A stretch of DNA of 64,000 nt from Eubacterium sp. Its GTDB lineage: Bacteria > Bacillota > Clostridia > Lachnospirales > Lachnospiraceae. Under the pieces are notes generated by a model. That model worked only from the letters and a program-made list of their open reading frames with translations. It had not been told where the DNA came from and ran no database searches. The DNA lies in contig JAILQM010000083.1 in assembly GCA_024698965.1 (NCBI GenBank), forward strand, positions 8,882-72,881. The letters run 5' to 3'. Both the position numbers and the translations under genes were made by a program. Below, piece after piece: positions 14,293-53,160 of the stretch; within the stretch, counting starts at the first letter, position 1, and the number at the start of each line of letters is the position of its first letter.

Positions 14293-14460
14293 GGCATTAA
14301 CCTCATTTCATAGTGAATTAATTCTATCATATTTTCATAACTTTGTTTATAAAAAGTTAATAATTCTTTATAGAATATTTCTTGAGCTTATAATGCAAAA
14401 AGAGTATCATCAAGAACGTAGAGAACTCATACTTCTCATCCCCCTAACATAATTTAGATA

Positions 14461-14499
14461 AAAAAATAAAACTTCCATTCGGAAGTTTTATTTTTTTAT
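14461..14499. terminator. Bidirectional rho-independent terminator
   Basis: aaaaaaataaaacttcc-attc-ggaagttttattttttt has a symmetric stem flanked by A- and T-runs. It ends the tRNA operon transcript on the minus strand. Confidence 0.8.
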
Positions 14500-14514
14500 C
14501 TTGCTTCTAGCATA

Positions 14515-14822
14515 GGGGACGGTTCTGCTTGCGCTTAGCATAGGGGACGGTTCTCTTTGTCGGTTTAGGGGGGACTCTCAGCATAGCATAGGGGACTCTC
14601 ACAGCATAGGGGACTCTCACAGCATAGGGGACGGTTCTCTTTGTTGAAACATAAGCATTTAGAACAAAGCTATATACTTTGATTGTTTCAACAAAGAGAA
14701 CCGTCCCCTATGCTGTGAGAGTCCCCTATGCTGTGAGAGTCCCCTATGCTATGCTGAGAGTCCCCCCTAAACCGACAAAGAGAACCGTCCCCTATGCTAA
14801 GCGCAAGCAGAACCGTCCCCTC
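14515..14822. repeat. Perfect long inverted repeat (137-bp arms 14515-14651 / 14686-14822, 34-nt spacer) composed of AGCATAGGGGAC iterons
   Basis: I reverse-complemented the right arm by hand and it equals the left arm with zero mismatches. Each arm carries about five AGCATAGGGGAC copies, each followed by GGTTCT(C/G) or TCTCAC. Confidence 0.9.
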
Positions 14823-14835
14823 CATATTCGTTAAT

Positions 14836-14921
14836 GCCGGCGACCGGAGTCGAACCGGTACGGGAAATTAATCCCACGGGATTTTAAGTCCCGGGCGTCT
14901 GCCAATTCCGCCACGCCGGCA
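14836..14921 (-). tRNA. tRNA-Leu (anticodon UAA), no encoded CCA
   Basis: The reverse complement is GCCGGCG-TG-GCGGAATTGGCAGACGC-CGGGA-CTTAAAA-TCCCG, then a long variable arm, ACCGGTTCGACTCCGGT and CGCCGGC-A. It forms a cloverleaf with a 7-bp acceptor stem. Confidence 0.9.
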
Positions 14922-14957
14922 TTTCAATATAAAATTGTAAAATATTATATTAAAAAA

Positions 14958-15039
14958 TGGACGGAGAAGGATTCGAACCTTCGAAGTCGTAGACAACAGA
15001 TTTACAGTCTGCCCCCTTTGGCCGCTCGGGAATCCGTCC
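14958..15039 (-). tRNA. tRNA-Tyr (anticodon GUA), no encoded CCA
   Basis: The reverse complement reads GGACGGA…GCAGA-CTGTAAA-TCTGT, then a variable arm, then …GGTTCGAATCC…TCCGTCC-A. Confidence 0.9.
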
Positions 15040-15073
15040 ATATGTCAAGGCTTAATTGCCCTGACGAGATTAG

Positions 15074-15102
15074 ATTATAGCATAGTAATTTCTATAATGC
15101 AA
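15074..15102 (-). promoter_or_regulatory. Sigma-A type promoter (TTGCAT-17-TATAAT) of the tRNA-Tyr/tRNA-Leu operon
   Basis: On the reverse complement, TTGCAT is at 15097-15102 and TATAAT at 15074-15079, about 35 nt upstream of tRNA-Tyr. Confidence 0.6.
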
Positions 15103-15109
15103 CCATATT

Positions 15110-16132
15110 TTAATTAAATGGCACAATTAAATGCGCAAATCTGAAACCGATTATTCCAAGCTCTCTTCCAAGCTTACCCGGAAGGTTTACAAATGCTGCA
15201 ATAGAGGCTCTTCTTACGACTATAGCCATTTTTCTGTTATGCTTGTAAAGCTCCTTCCACATGTCGGAAATCATTTTTTCCGCCTCATCTGTGCGGTTAA
15301 GTCTCGTAAAGATTGTTGCAAGAGTCATCATAAATGTAATCTCATGATATAAATATTTTACAAGACGCGGCTTTGTCTCTTTAAGCTTTTCAAGATCATG
15401 TGCCTTAAAGATTTCCTTTGACACAAGAATCTGGTGATCGCAGCGTTTCTTTAAGCTTTCTTCCGATACCGACTGGTTCTCTCTACCGATGAGGTAGAAG
15501 TAAAAGTCCTCATTGAGGTATACGATTTTTTCCACATAAGGAAGCGGATAGTAAGCAAAAAGGTTATCTTCAAAGAATGTATGCTTCGGAAGCACAACTC
15601 CGCATTTTCTCAATATCTCTGTACGATAAAGATTTGAATGCATTGTCATATACTGCCATGGTCTGAATCTTTTCACATCATCCCACTCGCAGGTAACCTT
15701 TTCCGGAATAACGTTTTTATATCTTATTGTTCTTGTTACTCCCTTGCCCTTGGTATAGTAAACGTAATTACAAACCATAAGGTCAATTCCGCCGTGACTT
15801 TCGGCAGCCTTTAATCTTTTAATTACAGCTTTAAGGGCCTTTTCTCCAACCCAGTCATCCGAGTCAACCACCTTAAAGTATTTTCCGGTAGCCTCGCGAA
15901 GTCCATGATTAATACCTTCGCCGTGACCTCCGTTTTCCTGTGTAAGAACTCTTACTATTGTCGGATACTTTTCTGCATAAGCAGCAGCAATTTCTCCGGT
16001 TTTGTCTGTGGAACCGTCATTAACGATAAGTATTTCCGCATCCTCACCGGCCTTAAGAAGACTGTCCACGCAGATATGCAAATAATCCTCCGAATTATAA
16101 CTCGGAACCACAAATGTTATTAATTTACTCAT
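15110..16132 (-). CDS. Family 2 glycosyltransferase
   Basis: GT-A N-terminus FVVPSYNSEDYLHICVDSLL…ILIVNDGSTD…VVDSDDW. Its ATG overlaps the TGA of the upstream gene (ATGA). Confidence 0.85.
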   Translation of the reverse strand: MSKLITFVVPSYNSEDYLHICVDSLLKAGEDAEILIVNDGSTDKTGEIAAAYAEKYPTIVRVLTQENGGHGEGINHGLREATGKYFKVVDSDDWVGEKALKAVIKRLKAAESHGGIDLMVCNYVYYTKGKGVTRTIRYKNVIPEKVTCEWDDVKRFRPWQYMTMHSNLYRTEILRKCGVVLPKHTFFEDNLFAYYPLPYVEKIVYLNEDFYFYLIGRENQSVSEESLKKRCDHQILVSKEIFKAHDLEKLKETKPRLVKYLYHEITFMMTLATIFTRLNRTDEAEKMISDMWKELYKHNRKMAIVVRRASIAAFVNLPGKLGRELGIIGFRFAHLIVPFN

Positions 16133-24558: not shown

Positions 24559-25197
24559 TTACCCCCTTAATACTTCAAACATTCCTCCGTCGCCTATCTC
24601 TACCTTTGCCGCGCCTCCCGTGGCTTCGGTAATGGCGTTTACTACCTTGTCCTTTTTATCCCCCGGAACTAAAATATCCATCTCTACATTTTCCGTATAC
24701 CTTGTATCCGTGGTCATGATTTCTTCGGTTCTTACTATATATTCTATCTTGCCCAAACCGTTATAATCAGTCGTAACACTGACCGGATAGCAGAATTCCA
24801 TCTCAGCTATCCTGCTGCATTTAATTCCTTCCCTTACAGCTGCCTGATAGGCTCTTACGAGTCCTCCCGTACCAAGCAAAACGCCGCCGAAATATCTTGT
24901 TACCACAACTACTGCATTATGAATATTTTCTCCGAGTAAAACGTCAAGCATGGGGCGTCCCGCAGTTCCGGACGGCTCCCCGTCGTCAGAGCATCTTGTA
25001 ATCTCGCTTTTTTCGCCGATTACAAATGCGCTGCAGTTATGACGCGCATCCCAGTACTTTTTTTTCATCTCATTTATAAAGGCGGTTGCTTCCTCTTCGG
25101 AGCTTACACTTTTAACGGTTGCAATAAATCTTGATTTCTTTTCGACTATCTCACCGCTTCCGCCTTCTTTTACCGTTCTGTATGTTGCTTCACTCAT
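24559..25197 (-). CDS. yigZ: YigZ (IMPACT/UPF0029) family protein
   Basis: EKKSRFIATV…ARHNCSAF…DDGEPSGTAGRPML…VVVTRYFGG.LLG.GGL motifs are typical of YigZ. Confidence 0.85.
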   Translation of the reverse strand: MSEATYRTVKEGGSGEIVEKKSRFIATVKSVSSEEEATAFINEMKKKYWDARHNCSAFVIGEKSEITRCSDDGEPSGTAGRPMLDVLLGENIHNAVVVVTRYFGGVLLGTGGLVRAYQAAVREGIKCSRIAEMEFCYPVSVTTDYNGLGKIEYIVRTEEIMTTDTRYTENVEMDILVPGDKKDKVVNAITEATGGAAKVEIGDGGMFEVLRG

Positions 25198-25233: not shown

Positions 25234-25248
25234 CAATTCTTATATTTC

Positions 25249-26103
25249 CGTAACGCATTTACTTTACTAGCCTCGCTCCCGCAAGCCATCTCCCATACTT
25301 TCGAAAACGCATACCGATTGAAGTTTGCACTGCTTTATTTGTCAGCGTTTTCTCGGCATGGGGCCCTCTTGCTCGCGCTCGGGCCTACTTTTACAGTCGA
25401 TGGGCATATTCATAAATTGCCCGTAACGCATTTACTTTGCCACCCTCGCTCCCGCAAGCCATCTCCCATACTTTCGAAAACGCATACCGATTGAAGATTG
25501 CATTACTTTGTTTGTCAGCGTTTTCTTGGCATGGGGCCCTCTTGCTCGCGCTCGGGCCTACTTTTACGGTCGACGGGATATACAAGAATTGCCCGTAACG
25601 CATATTCTTTGCCAGCCTCGCTCCCGCAAGCCATCTCCCATACTTTCGAAAACGCATGCCGATTGAAGATTGCATCACTTTGTTTGTTAGCGTTTTCTCG
25701 GCATGGGGCCCTCTTGCTCGCGCTCGGGCCTACTTTTTTGGTCGACGGGCTTTCTTTATATATTTGTTGCACGTAACGCACTTACTCTGCCACCCTCGCT
25801 CCCGCAAGCCATCTCCCATACTTTCGAAAACGCATGCCGATTGAATCCTGCCTTACTCTATTTGTTAGCGTTTTCTCGGCATGGGGCCCTCTTGCTCGCG
25901 CTTGGGCCTACTTTTACGGTCGACGGGCATATTCATAAATTGCCCGTAACGCATATTCTTTGCTTGCCTCGCTCCCGCAAGCCATCTCCCATACTTTCGA
26001 AAACGCATGCCGATTGAGCCCTGCCTTACTCTATTTGTCAGCGTTTTCTCGGCATGGGGCCCTCTTGCTCGCGCTCGGGCCTACTTTTACGGTCGACGGG
26101 CGG
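25249..26103. repeat. Tandem array of five repeat units of about 172-178 bp (non-coding)
   Basis: Units start at about 25249, 25422, 25594, 25772 and 25945 with CGTAACGCA. Two cores are invariant: CCTCGCTCCCGCAAGCCATCTCCCATACTTTCGAAAACGCAT and GGCATGGGGCCCTCTTGCTCGCGCT(C/T)GGGCCTACTTTT. Three variable segments separate them. Confidence 0.9.
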
Positions 26104-26197: not shown

Positions 26198-28798
26198 ATG
26201 GACTACAGTAAAGAAGAAGTAAGTAAAAAGAAAAAGAACCTAAATTCAAAAAGAAAAAAGAATCATCCGTTCTTTTCCGCATTTAAGATAGTAGTATGTT
26301 CGCTTATTGCAATAGGCTGTATCGGACTTTGCTGTTTATTCGGTCTTATTAACGGAGCGCTTGCAAGTGCGCCTTCAATAGACTCAATAGACGTTTCTCC
26401 CACAGGCTTTGCAACAACGGTGTATGACAGTGAAGGCACGGAGCTGACACAGCTCGTATCATCGGGTTCAAACAGAGTCTATGTAACAATAGATGAAATA
26501 CCCGAATGTGTGCAACACGCATTTGTCGCTATAGAAGACAGCCGTTTTTACGAGCATAACGGTATCGACATTAAAGGTATTATCCGTGCGGCATTTATCG
26601 GTATTACCACGGGTAACTTCTCAGAAGGTGCTAGTACAATCACTCAGCAGCTTCTTAAGAACAATGTCTTTACGACCTGGACAAGTGAGTCAAGTTTCGG
26701 CGAAAAGCTCAAGCGAAAGATTCAGGAGCAGTACCTTGCCGTCGAGCTTGAAAAGGTAACGGATAAAGATACGATTCTCGAAAACTACCTTAATACAATT
26801 AACCTCGGTCAAAACACCTTAGGTGTAGAGGCCGCATCAAACCGATATTTTAACAAAGATGTTTCTGAGCTTACAATATCAGAAGCTGCGGTTATTGCGT
26901 CAATTACGCAAAACCCTACAAAATACAATCCTGTAACAAACCCTGAAGAGAATGCAACAAGACGTGAAAAAGTATTGGGCAATATGCTTAAAGACGGCTA
27001 TATAACAGAAGCCGAATATAATGAAGCCCTTGCGGATGATGTTTATTCGAGAATTCAGGATATTAACGAATCGACAGAAACATCCATCTACTCATACTTC
27101 GTAGATGAGCTTATAGAGCAGGTAATAAACGATCTTCAGGAACAGAAGGGTTATTCCGAATCTCAGGCCTACAAGCTATTATACAGCGGCGGCCTTTCGA
27201 TTTACACAACTCAGGATCCGGAAATTCAGGCTATATGCGACGAAGAATACCAGGATTCATCAAACTTCCCGGATTCTACGGAGTGGACGGTTAACTTAAC
27301 GCTTACCATAGAACATTCCGACGGTACCTACAGTTATTATGATGAGCAGTCAATGCTTTCATATTATAAGGCTAACGTATCTTCAAGCTCTTACCTAATA
27401 TACAGTACGAAAAAAGAAGCCAAGAAGGCCGTTCGTGCATACGAAAAGGCTATTATGGAAGCCGGAGATACAATACCTGAAAACGGCGAGGTTATTACAT
27501 ATGTAGCCCAGCCGCAGTCATCTATTGTAGTAATGGATCAATCCACCGGAGAAGTAAAAGCCATTGTCGGCGGACGAGGCAAAAAGCAGGCTTCTCTTAC
27601 ACTTAACCGAGCAACAAACACTTATCGTCAGCCAGGTTCTACATTTAAAGTTGTATCGACATTTGCTCCGGCAATTGATGCGGCAGGATATACCCTCGCT
27701 TCCGTCCAGGACGATGCTCCTTACAGCTATTCCGACGGAACAACCGTCCACAACTACGATAATTCATATGGCGGCTTTACAACAATAAGACGTGCGATTA
27801 TGAAATCAATAAACATAGTTACCGTAAAAACACTTACGGATATCACTCCGCAGCTCGGTTATAATTACCTGTTAAACTTCGGATTTTCAAAGCTTTCAGA
27901 ATCAGACATCGTACAGTCCCTTGCCCTCGGAGGTATTACAACAGGTGTATCAAACTTAGAGCTCACCGCATCTTATGCGACAATAGCAAACGGCGGCACT
28001 TATACGGAGCCTATCTTCTATACAAAAATACTTGACCACGACGGCAATGTGCTCATTGAAAACGAGCCTGAAACAAGACAGGTATTACAGGAGACAACAG
28101 CCTTCCTTCTTACAGATGCAATGGAAGACGTTGTAACAAGCGGAACAGGTACAGCAGTAAACTTCGGTACTACAGCAATAGCCGGAAAAACAGGTACAAC
28201 AACTTCAAATGTTGACTCATGGTTTGTCGGATTTACAACCAGCTATACTTGCGGCGTATGGGGCGGATATGACACTAATGCCTCCCTTAGCTCAACTACC
28301 TACACCAAGAATTTATGGCGAGCAGTTATGTCTAGGATTCACGAGGATATGGAATACGAGAGTTTCCCTGTACCGGATGGTATTGTGAAAGCCTCTGTAT
28401 GCTCTAAATCGGGACTTTTACCTATAGACGGAGTTTGCTCTAACGATCCGAGAGGAAGCATGGTGATAACAGAATACTTTGCCAAAGGCACGGTTCCTAC
28501 AGATTACTGTAACCACCATATATCGGTTACAATTTGTGAAGATTCCGGTCTTATAGCGAGTGATTACTGCCCTGAAAGCAGCAAAACCACTCAGGTATTT
28601 ATAATAGACGGTTCGTCTTCAACCTCAGACGGTTCATATCTCTATGATGATATAGCCGATCAGATATGTAATATTCACGACGGTTCGCAAACCGAAGAAG
28701 CAACCGACGAAGAGACAACAGAAACCGAAGAAGACACCGGTGCAGAAGAAACCTCTGACGATAGCCAAAGCGACACAGGAACGGAAACTGCAGAATAG
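26198..28798 (+). CDS. Class A penicillin-binding protein (PBP1A family; glycosyltransferase plus transpeptidase) with an acidic C-terminal tail
   Basis: An N-terminal TM anchor, GT51 motifs (EDSRFYEHNGID, GASTITQQL, RKIQE) and transpeptidase motifs STFK and KTGTT. Confidence 0.92.
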   Translation: MDYSKEEVSKKKKNLNSKRKKNHPFFSAFKIVVCSLIAIGCIGLCCLFGLINGALASAPSIDSIDVSPTGFATTVYDSEGTELTQLVSSGSNRVYVTIDEIPECVQHAFVAIEDSRFYEHNGIDIKGIIRAAFIGITTGNFSEGASTITQQLLKNNVFTTWTSESSFGEKLKRKIQEQYLAVELEKVTDKDTILENYLNTINLGQNTLGVEAASNRYFNKDVSELTISEAAVIASITQNPTKYNPVTNPEENATRREKVLGNMLKDGYITEAEYNEALADDVYSRIQDINESTETSIYSYFVDELIEQVINDLQEQKGYSESQAYKLLYSGGLSIYTTQDPEIQAICDEEYQDSSNFPDSTEWTVNLTLTIEHSDGTYSYYDEQSMLSYYKANVSSSSYLIYSTKKEAKKAVRAYEKAIMEAGDTIPENGEVITYVAQPQSSIVVMDQSTGEVKAIVGGRGKKQASLTLNRATNTYRQPGSTFKVVSTFAPAIDAAGYTLASVQDDAPYSYSDGTTVHNYDNSYGGFTTIRRAIMKSINIVTVKTLTDITPQLGYNYLLNFGFSKLSESDIVQSLALGGITTGVSNLELTASYATIANGGTYTEPIFYTKILDHDGNVLIENEPETRQVLQETTAFLLTDAMEDVVTSGTGTAVNFGTTAIAGKTGTTTSNVDSWFVGFTTSYTCGVWGGYDTNASLSSTTYTKNLWRAVMSRIHEDMEYESFPVPDGIVKASVCSKSGLLPIDGVCSNDPRGSMVITEYFAKGTVPTDYCNHHISVTICEDSGLIASDYCPESSKTTQVFIIDGSSSTSDGSYLYDDIADQICNIHDGSQTEEATDEETTETEEDTGAEETSDDSQSDTGTETAE

Positions 28799-52804: not shown

Positions 52805-53125
52805 TAAAAAACGCCCCTGAGACCTTAAGTCTCAGGGACGATACATACCGTGGTGCCACCCTGCTTCATTATGATGCCGCATTTTTAATAAAAAAGGCAG
52901 ATTCCCCGAAACCGGAAAATCTGCCACCGCTTATCATAACCTTTATCCAAATACGGAGCTATATGCTCGATATTCTGCCCCTGTAACGCGAGGACGCGGC
53001 ATCCGCTACTAAGTAAACCTTTTCGCTTTGCATCTCACAAACCCATTCCCTAAAAGCGCTGTTATCTGCTCACACCAACCGCAGACTCTCTGAAAACCTC
53101 ATCTAAAAGGTACTATCTTTGCTCA
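52805..53125 (-). promoter_or_regulatory. T-box riboswitch leader, Trp-specific (UGG specifier), with terminator
   Basis: On the minus strand I see the GA/K-turn GATGA, the AGAGAG box, a specifier context GAA-UGG-G, the T-box sequence GCAGGGTGGCACCACGG (UGGC bulge complementary to a G73-CCA tRNA end), and then the terminator ccctgagac-ttaa-ggtctcagggg followed by a T-run (52805-52840). Confidence 0.8.
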
Positions 53126-53160
53126 TAGATTTTATTGCTTTATTAAATTAACGCAAGACA

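Follow-up and report, generated by a model that had tools for sequence, protein, structure and literature searches.

Architecture of a palindrome in a tRNA operon

The 64-kb stretch of Eubacterium sp. contig JAILQM010000083.1 analysed here (the window) contains a two-gene tRNA operon on its minus strand, and the 3' trailer of this operon carries a long, perfect palindrome. A repeat search over the whole window identified two arms, 14514-14651 and 14684-14821, which are complementary at 138 of 138 nt and enclose an AT-rich, asymmetric spacer of 32 nt. The same search revealed no second long inverted repeat and no further copy of an arm in the window. A preliminary description of this DNA had correctly recognized a perfect palindrome with arms built of repeats and had rightly placed it in the 3' trailer of the tRNA operon; the boundaries it gave (14515-14651 and 14686-14822, with 137-nt arms and a 34-nt spacer) deviate by 1-2 nt. 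One end of the palindrome lies 12 nt from the 3' end of tRNA-Leu and the other 12 nt from the stem of an intrinsic terminator. The locus comprises the following features:

14456-14501, bidirectional: intrinsic terminator with a stem of ~20 bp and A/T runs on both sides
14500-14513, plus strand: imperfect extension CTTGCTTCTAGCAT, which completes the 28-nt outermost unit, this unit being 86% identical to the next one
14514-14651, plus strand: terminator-proximal arm, distal to the tRNA, with six GGGGAC-core units reading inward (14509-14527, 14537-14555, 14564-14579 (degenerate), 14585-14600, 14603-14618 and 14621-14639)
14652-14683, no strand: spacer TAAGCATTTAGAACAAAGCTATATACTTTGAT, with a small internal CAAAG/CTTTG hairpin
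14684-14821, minus strand: tRNA-proximal arm with mirror-image units, sense relative to the tRNA operon (14696-14714, 14717-14732, 14735-14750, 14756-14771, 14780-14798 and 14808-14821 (truncated))
14834-14921, minus strand: tRNA-Leu(UAA), identified by ARAGORN and Rfam; no encoded CCA
14957-15040, minus strand: tRNA-Tyr(GUA), first gene of the two-tRNA unit, identified by ARAGORN and Rfam
15074-15102, minus strand: putative promoter of the tRNA unit, TTGCAT-17-TATAAT

Each arm is composed of six units with a GGGGAC core: three full units, GGGGACGGTTCT(C/G), and three GGT-deleted units, GGGGACTCTC, one of which is degenerate. Apart from the GGT-deleted variant, the units take the form AGCATAGGGGACGGTTCTC. 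Their spacings within an arm are irregular (28, 48, 18 and 18 nt). The 12-mer AGCATAGGGGAC is found in five exact copies on the plus strand and four on the minus strand, all of them confined to the palindrome locus, while 0.16 matches with at most one mismatch would be expected by chance. Two degenerate copies, TTTAGGGGGGAC, and one truncated AGGGGAC raise the total to ~12, in agreement with the 10-12 copies estimated earlier. The two outer ends differ: the terminator-side arm continues outward imperfectly for 14 nt, thereby filling out its outermost unit, and the outermost tRNA-proximal unit is cut down to AGGGGAC. Neither a convincing promoter nor a convincing coding remnant was seen in the 32-nt spacer.

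The minus-strand RNA of the palindrome is predicted to fold as a single long hairpin (-336.6 kcal/mol, z = -36), as had been anticipated. At the locus, Rfam searches of the whole window at gathering scores and of 14300-15150 at an E-value threshold returned only the tRNAs; matches of the palindrome to miRNA precursors are generic long-hairpin matches far below threshold. The bidirectional terminator reported beside the palindrome was located at 14456-14501 and is conserved in a close syntenic relative (locus L011). The promoter proposed for the tRNA unit is likewise conserved there, although it is absent from the list produced by a consensus scan.

L011 is the one syntenic locus that was recovered. 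Its MoCF is 88% identical to that of the window, the flanks are highly similar, and the order is GT2 glycosyltransferase gene, promoter, tRNA-Tyr, tRNA-Leu, terminator and MoCF leader. The palindrome is absent. Between the 3' end of tRNA-Leu and the conserved terminator, L011 exhibits ~90 nt of unrelated sequence with its own hairpin-plus-T terminator (AGCCCCTTAGGGGGCTTTTTT), and no target-site duplication is visible in the comparison. Because L011 has the same tRNA locus without the palindrome, the latter is a recent, lineage-specific gain that replaced this stretch of ~90 nt. The tRNA unit is conserved without it: L011 keeps the promoter, both tRNAs and the terminator, and the palindrome is missing there. 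L011 is the only informative relative for the tRNA locus, and look-ups by exact proteins added little. Other relatives, with MoCF identities of 79-86%, show a different upstream synteny (including P0002, P0004, P0005, P0008 and P0012), and a same-species Logan contig obtained by a GT2 look-up stops inside tRNA-Tyr and thus does not span the palindrome.

L011 has a peculiarity of its own. At 2456-2545, tRNA-Tyr and tRNA-Leu are separated by an insert of 68 nt in which the 22-nt 3' end of tRNA-Tyr (GGTTCGAATCCTTCTCCGTCCA) recurs as an exact second copy. The insert, which the window lacks, resembles a scar of the att type left by an integrative element.

The repeat unit and its association with Y1 genes

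One genome per species was scanned for two exact 12-mers situated 2-30 nt apart. Nine loci were obtained, against ~0.1 expected by our own estimate, in Clostridia metagenome-assembled genomes (MAGs), Desulfobacterota, Nitrospirota and a Kistimonas MAG. A slightly looser scan identified 85 motif loci across phyla in JGI metagenomes, and a scan of a viral collection gave one contig. The analysis covered 95 independent motif loci with a total of 425 kb, mainly on contigs of 1-6 kb. At three of the nine loci obtained first, a gene that combines a Y1_Tnp (IS200-like) domain with a DnaA_C-like C-terminus lies beside the motif pairs. A hidden Markov model (HMM) search placed a Y1_Tnp gene on the same contig in 15 of the 95 motif loci, and Y1 gene remnants were found on L010, L053 and L097 in addition. 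As such genes normally occur about once per genome, we estimate their enrichment at motif loci at roughly two or more orders of magnitude.

RAYT-like genes (RAYT stands for REP-associated tyrosine transposase, and REP for repetitive extragenic palindrome) that are flanked by terminal inverted repeats (TIRs) instead of REPs have been termed TIRYTs or TIRtrons; many TIRtron repeats share the sequence GGGGWSAS, and their families comprise single copies, dimers and clusters (Di Nocera et al., 2013; PMC3733652). TIRYTs were later equated with the subclass 2.1 Y1 proteins, which carry DnaA_C or helix-turn-helix (HTH) tails and near whose genes no REP-like sequences were reported (Quentin et al., 2018; PMC6006769). 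A literature search returned nothing specific on the present repeat in Clostridia.

The geometry around the Y1 genes is constant: a tandem array of units with the core ATAGGGGAC precedes the gene in its sense, and the reverse complement follows it. In self-blast comparisons these arrays appear as TIRs of 30-59 nt that are 88-97% identical and lie ~1 kb apart around the Y1 gene. Y1 genes are flanked by the repeat in this manner in L099, L100-L108, L020, L024 and L085, and L053 represents a decayed TIRtron in which only the first ~20 N-terminal codons are left between inverted motif pairs. The proteins of L008 and L085 combine Y1_Tnp with sub-threshold DnaA_C/DnaA matches. The units of the window share a core of 13-30 nt with repeats flanking Y1 genes in gut Clostridia and other phyla.

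The closest examples come from Clostridia. In L027, asnS precedes three units that recur every 31 nt, and after these comes a gene for a Y1 protein of 253 aa; the unit GCATAGGGGACGGTTCTCTATGTTGAAATAA is nearly identical to the inner unit of the window, AGCATAGGGGACGGTTCTCTTTGTTGAAACA. This protein has ~1,900 homologues in gut-type metagenomes, many of them on contigs of ~1 kb, as expected if repeats flank the Y1 gene and break assemblies. Among these homologues is P0182, which bears the annotation “REP-associated tyrosine transposase [Eubacterium sp.]” and passes the NCBIfam model NF047646 with 84.2 bits (cutoff 80); its sole PDB match is 4ER8, the E. coli TnpArep. On the same model P0187 and P0121 reach 75-76 bits and the Desulfobacterota proteins 60-63 bits; P0182 is 36% identical to the Desulfobacterota-type proteins over the Y1 domain. 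For P0182 and the L027 protein, Pfam gives only Y1_Tnp, besides which both possess a C-terminal tail of ~100 aa. Inverted repeats with the sequences ACACAGGGGACGGTTCCTTGTGT and ACACAAGGGGACGGTTCTCTTGTGT flank P0182 (L099) and P0187 (L100-L109), and in both cases a TTGACA -35 box for the Y1 gene is contributed by the inner end of the upstream TIR. Identical neighbours surround P0187 on 10 of 10 contigs shown, and it is a single fixed locus, RAYT-like rather than insertion sequence (IS)-like. A check for a common MAG of the window and P0182 gave differing protein accessions (MCR5785163.1 versus MGN0458662.1).

In L100 (3001-6550), a PTA_PTB gene, the P0187 gene and a gene for a 410-aa protein without a Pfam match are followed by dnaA, which lies 1.5 kb downstream of P0187. 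The vicinity of dnaA deserves mention, since a DnaA_C-like tail is found in further proteins of this family.

According to a crude open reading frame (ORF) call, most clusters of the repeat are intergenic direct arrays of 2-8 units, typically located 0-75 nt downstream of a gene and in sense orientation, and they follow many unrelated genes. The tRNA-proximal arm of the window shares this sense, gene-downstream orientation. Inverted arrangements exist as well: the head-to-head form AGCATAGGGGAC-T-GTCCCCTATGCT is present in two Gallispira loci, and a related Clostridial MAG contains an inverted doublet with 27-nt arms and a 7-nt spacer (L005, 7297-7390). The related MAG RUG13409 exhibits at least 6 separate repeat sites on two contigs.

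Several motif loci show features of their own. In a Candidatus Gallispira MAG (L002, 1888-1928; L007, 538-600 and 2694-2751), perfect head-to-head 12-mers are followed by further inverted copies, and the neighbouring ORFs look phage-like by eye (capsid-like and XkdQ-like). In L017 (1700-2130) and L021 (1620-2050), the same core is contained in long arrays whose units, more than 14 in number, recur every 31 nt (ATCATGTCCCCTATGCTAATGTCATAACAAA); they represent a satellite-like expansion of the repeat family in a metagenomic organism. On Kistimonas and related metagenome contigs (L009, L019 and L081), repeats of the GTCCCCTATGC type with periods of 27-36 nt apparently lie within a long ORF; some motif matches are therefore not extragenic, as these repeats appear in a repetitive protein-coding region.

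The unit of the relatives is predicted to be a hairpin with a covarying stem of 5-8 bp around a conserved GGGACGGTTCT. For this analysis, 41 distinct units were aligned in register, the central GGGGACGGTTC being invariant by construction. Compensatory changes in the flanks include GCATAG/CTATGC, GGCACTT/AAGTGCC, TGCACAG/CTGTGCA and ACACAAG/CTTGTGT. Across an 8-bp stem, 70.7% of cells are paired, compared to 53.3% in shuffles (0 of 500 reach the observed value) and at most 51.5% in slid registers, and the covariation score is 0.478 versus at most 0.17 in slid registers; since the units are related, the shuffle control overstates significance and the slid control is the more relevant one. Units of L005 and L100 fold with z = -3 to -5, their stems being lengthened by GGGG/TCTC through G·T pairs. 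Because G·T pairs are frequent in the stems, the GGGGAC strand is suggested to be the functional strand. In the window, the units are degenerate, and the partner strand is supplied only by the inverted duplication.

Relation to known repeat systems and possible origin

By sequence, the locus appears to belong to the RAYT/TIRYT-associated extragenic repeats. Agreement with the TIRYT/TIRtron system is found in the GGGG(A)(C) core, which corresponds to the start of the published GGGGWSAS, in the inverted repeats that flank a Y1 HUH gene in related loci, often one with a putative DnaA_C-like HTH tail, and in the dispersal of the repeats among relatives as singles, dimers and clusters. Sister loci that contain the same 12-mer (L007, L035, L042 and L098) read GGGGACAG, a full GGGGWSAS match. 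Unlike typical TIRtron repeats, the units of Clostridia are predicted to form stem-loops in which the centre is conserved and the stem covaries, and the arms in the window are perfect six-unit arrays of 138 nt with no TIRYT gene in view.

A second set of parallels connects the locus to the REP, BIME and REPIN elements that accompany RAYTs (TnpA-REP) in E. coli and Pseudomonas. These, too, are short extragenic repeats that gather downstream of genes and build mosaic clusters and inverted doublets forming long hairpins. The palindrome itself constitutes an inverted doublet of six-unit arrays, with the doublets of L005 (7297-7390), L002 and L007 as its simple counterparts. The associated Y1 gene is single-copy, repeat-flanked and at a fixed locus, and P0182 passes the RAYT model and matches 4ER8. 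However, no GTAG or CGTC tag adjoins the stems, the conserved part is the central GGGGACGGTTCT rather than a stem plus tetranucleotide, and the units of the window appear to have lost the capacity to fold singly. In REPINs the arms span a few tens of nt, whereas those of the window measure 138 nt. The IS200/IS605 elements (IS608, ISDra2) share the Y1 HUH enzyme and small subterminal hairpins on one strand, and the G·T wobbles described above also point to one strand; these elements are, however, autonomous, multicopy and devoid of TIRs, while the P0187 gene is single-copy and its repeats are inverted. With miniature inverted-repeat transposable elements (MITEs) the locus has in common that it is a gene-less element of two inverted termini, and the decayed TIRtron of L053 illustrates that such a route exists. 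In contrast to MITEs, the whole palindrome was not found as a repeated unit in the window or in phage and plasmid collections, no target-site duplication is definable and the arms are tandem arrays instead of single termini. A CRISPR-like array was rejected, as spacings vary from 18 to 48 nt, unique spacers are missing and no cas genes are among the neighbours scanned.

The locus thus falls within a known kind of repeat cluster, selfish or domesticated, of which it is an exceptionally large and perfect case, and is not a new system; its long perfect arms are its sole unusual feature. The earlier impression that nothing known explains the palindrome does not hold: the GGGGAC/GGGGACGGTTCTC unit is a repeat of extragenic DNA that is widespread, occurs in many copies and forms the TIRs of RAYT/TIRYT genes. 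The proposal of an iteron array for a DNA-binding protein came close to the truth; the repeats are plausibly recognized by a protein. Similarly, the finding named beforehand as one that would turn the case, that the arm is a common MITE or IS end in many copies for which a transposase is known elsewhere, is essentially what was obtained, at the level of the repeat unit.

In our judgement, the locus is most probably a head-to-head, REPIN/BIME-like cluster of GGGGAC-core repeats from the family that serves as TIRs of Y1 HUH RAYT/TIRYT genes. A Y1 protein encoded elsewhere in the genome may have seeded or amplified the units at this site, where they would have taken the place of the tRNA operon's own terminator hairpin. 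One six-unit array may then have been copied in inverted orientation very recently, by fold-back, template switching or arm-to-arm gene conversion. Arm copying is proposed because identity across irregular spacings cannot come from independent decay. Transcription from the conserved promoter probably includes the element and ends at the conserved terminator; the element would then form the 3' trailer of the tRNA transcript and be freed after an RNase Z-type cleavage. Processing by RNase III and extrusion of a cruciform, both suggested earlier, may also take place. In this scenario, the long hairpin would be a by-product or would at most stabilise or terminate the 3' end, without being a dedicated device.

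A number of observations weigh against this origin. Neither tblastn nor HMM searches detected a Y1 transposase gene in the window, so that a cognate protein in this genome is assumed, and the repeat forms only one cluster within the 64 kb. The four window units that were folded individually perform no better than shuffles as hairpins. With GGGGACGG or GGGGACTC, the units match 7 of 8 GGGGWSAS positions; in their core, GGGGAC(G/T)(G/C), the A at position 7 is absent. Arms near 138 nt, or perfect ones, were found by self-blast in none of the other 95 motif loci, and the inverted-duplication step has no direct precedent in the sample, as the other TIR arms measure 30-59 nt with 88-97% identity. 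Lastly, the difference between the window and L011 is a ~90-nt replacement and not a clean insertion with a target-site duplication.

An assembly artefact, in which the second inverted arm or the copy number of the units was created by the assembler from a repeat-rich region, is considered unlikely. It would account for the perfect identity of the arms in a contig that stems from a MAG, the sole syntenic relative lacks the palindrome, the same-species Logan contig ends in tRNA-Tyr without crossing the region, and Y1-gene contigs, typically ~1 kb long, show that the repeats break assemblies. Yet the palindrome is internal and bordered by unique sequence, with tRNA-Leu on one side and the conserved terminator on the other, and both flanks are collinear with those of L011, while fold-back artefacts normally invert the flank too and are located at contig ends. 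The asymmetric 32-nt spacer, the lack of any other long palindrome in 64 kb and the head-to-head arrangement of the same unit in independent assemblies also argue for a genuine structure. Alternatively, the perfect arms might be the fresh footprint of repeat multiplication by the Y1 HUH enzyme: after a nick in the array, the 3' end would fold back and copy it, by analogy with rolling-hairpin replication and terminal resolution by the parvoviral HUH Rep, and the palindrome would be a giant REPIN-type mobilisable unit that has just formed. This version we regard as quite unlikely; if true, the TIRYT/subclass 2.1 enzymes would recognize a stem-loop with a conserved GGGACGGTTCT centre.

It is very unlikely that the palindrome is the MITE-like remnant of a TIRtron whose Y1 gene once lay between the arrays and was deleted, leaving the 32-nt spacer. 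The arm units do read inward, in the orientation of the arrays around Y1 genes, the L053 TIRtron has decayed to ~20 N-terminal codons, and the arms end on the inside with TTGTTGAAACA, a sequence similar to the inner ends of the TIRs, TGTTGACA and TGTTGAAATA, which bear the -35 box of the gene. However, the TIR arms at real genes (30-59 nt, 88-97% identity) are shorter and imperfect, the base-for-base identity of 138 nt with irregular spacing indicates arm copying and not independent decay, and tblastn and HMM searches of the window revealed no Y1 coding trace in the spacer. A dedicated module, be it a tRNA processing or termination device, a double-stranded RNA (dsRNA) locus, a plasmid or phage iteron origin or an att scar, is extremely improbable, even though the palindrome lies in a tRNA 3' trailer between a conserved promoter and terminator, forms an extremely stable predicted RNA hairpin and adjoins a tRNA 3' end, a classic integration site. 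A role in tRNA processing or termination, which had been suggested, is argued against by L011, where a simple terminator hairpin occupies the place of the palindrome and the promoter, tRNAs and terminator persist, and the same units are present downstream of many unrelated genes. Rfam offered only sub-threshold miRNA-precursor hairpins. A phage or plasmid origin was rejected because the palindrome gave no blastn match in phage and plasmid collections and the motif pair was present on a single viral contig. Likewise, an att site or integrated element, previously considered as a scar or target at the tRNA 3' end, was discarded, since neither tRNA 3' end is duplicated in the window and the neighbours scanned, ordinary metabolic and transport genes, include no rep or integrase gene.

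The assignment places a striking “orphan” palindrome in a known class, the RAYT/TIRYT-associated extragenic repeats, and no major paradigm is altered. The repeat cluster has a core of 12-13 nt (CATAGGGGAC or GGGGACGGTTCTC) that is conserved beside Y1 genes from Clostridia to Desulfobacterota and Nitrospirota, and the cognate Y1 RAYT/TIRYT gene would be expected to be flanked by the core TIR GCATAGGGGACGGTTCTC. The predicted hairpin unit of gut Clostridia, with its conserved centre, is a modest addition, given that the main phylogenomic survey reported no REP-like structure for the subclass. Furthermore, arrays of such units can give perfect palindromes of more than 300 bp, which are potential fragile sites and, in a tRNA trailer, potential sources of dsRNA.

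Neighbouring genes and other elements of the window

The window has a GC content of ~41%, a steadily negative GC skew on the plus strand and genes mainly on the minus strand. A scan of nine neighbouring genes revealed only ordinary genes of the chromosome, with metabolic and transport functions; among them are the MoCF-domain gene, the GT2 glycosyltransferase gene, a CoA-enzyme activase gene and ABC transporter genes. The MoCF protein of the window is 100% identical to a MAG protein annotated as molybdopterin-binding protein of Eubacterium sp., from which the MAG origin of the window follows.

A leader of ~160 nt upstream of the MoCF gene (14293-14455, TAAATTATGTTAGGGGGATGAGAAGTATGAG) is highly conserved in the window, in L011 (2806-3000) and in L111 (530-700). 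In L111, a different upstream synteny meets the conserved leader at the place that corresponds to the terminator. The retention of the leader even where the upstream synteny differs suggests a cis-regulatory element; it has no Rfam match at gathering score.

At 25248-26101, ~4.9 tandem copies of a 173-nt unit with 89% identity lie in a non-coding region of ~1 kb, between the divergent genes 24559-25197 (minus strand) and 26198-28798 (plus strand). This array has no Rfam match even at E <= 0.1. Finally, a T-box leader (Rfam RF00230, 108.9 bits) is located at 52831-53135 on the minus strand.

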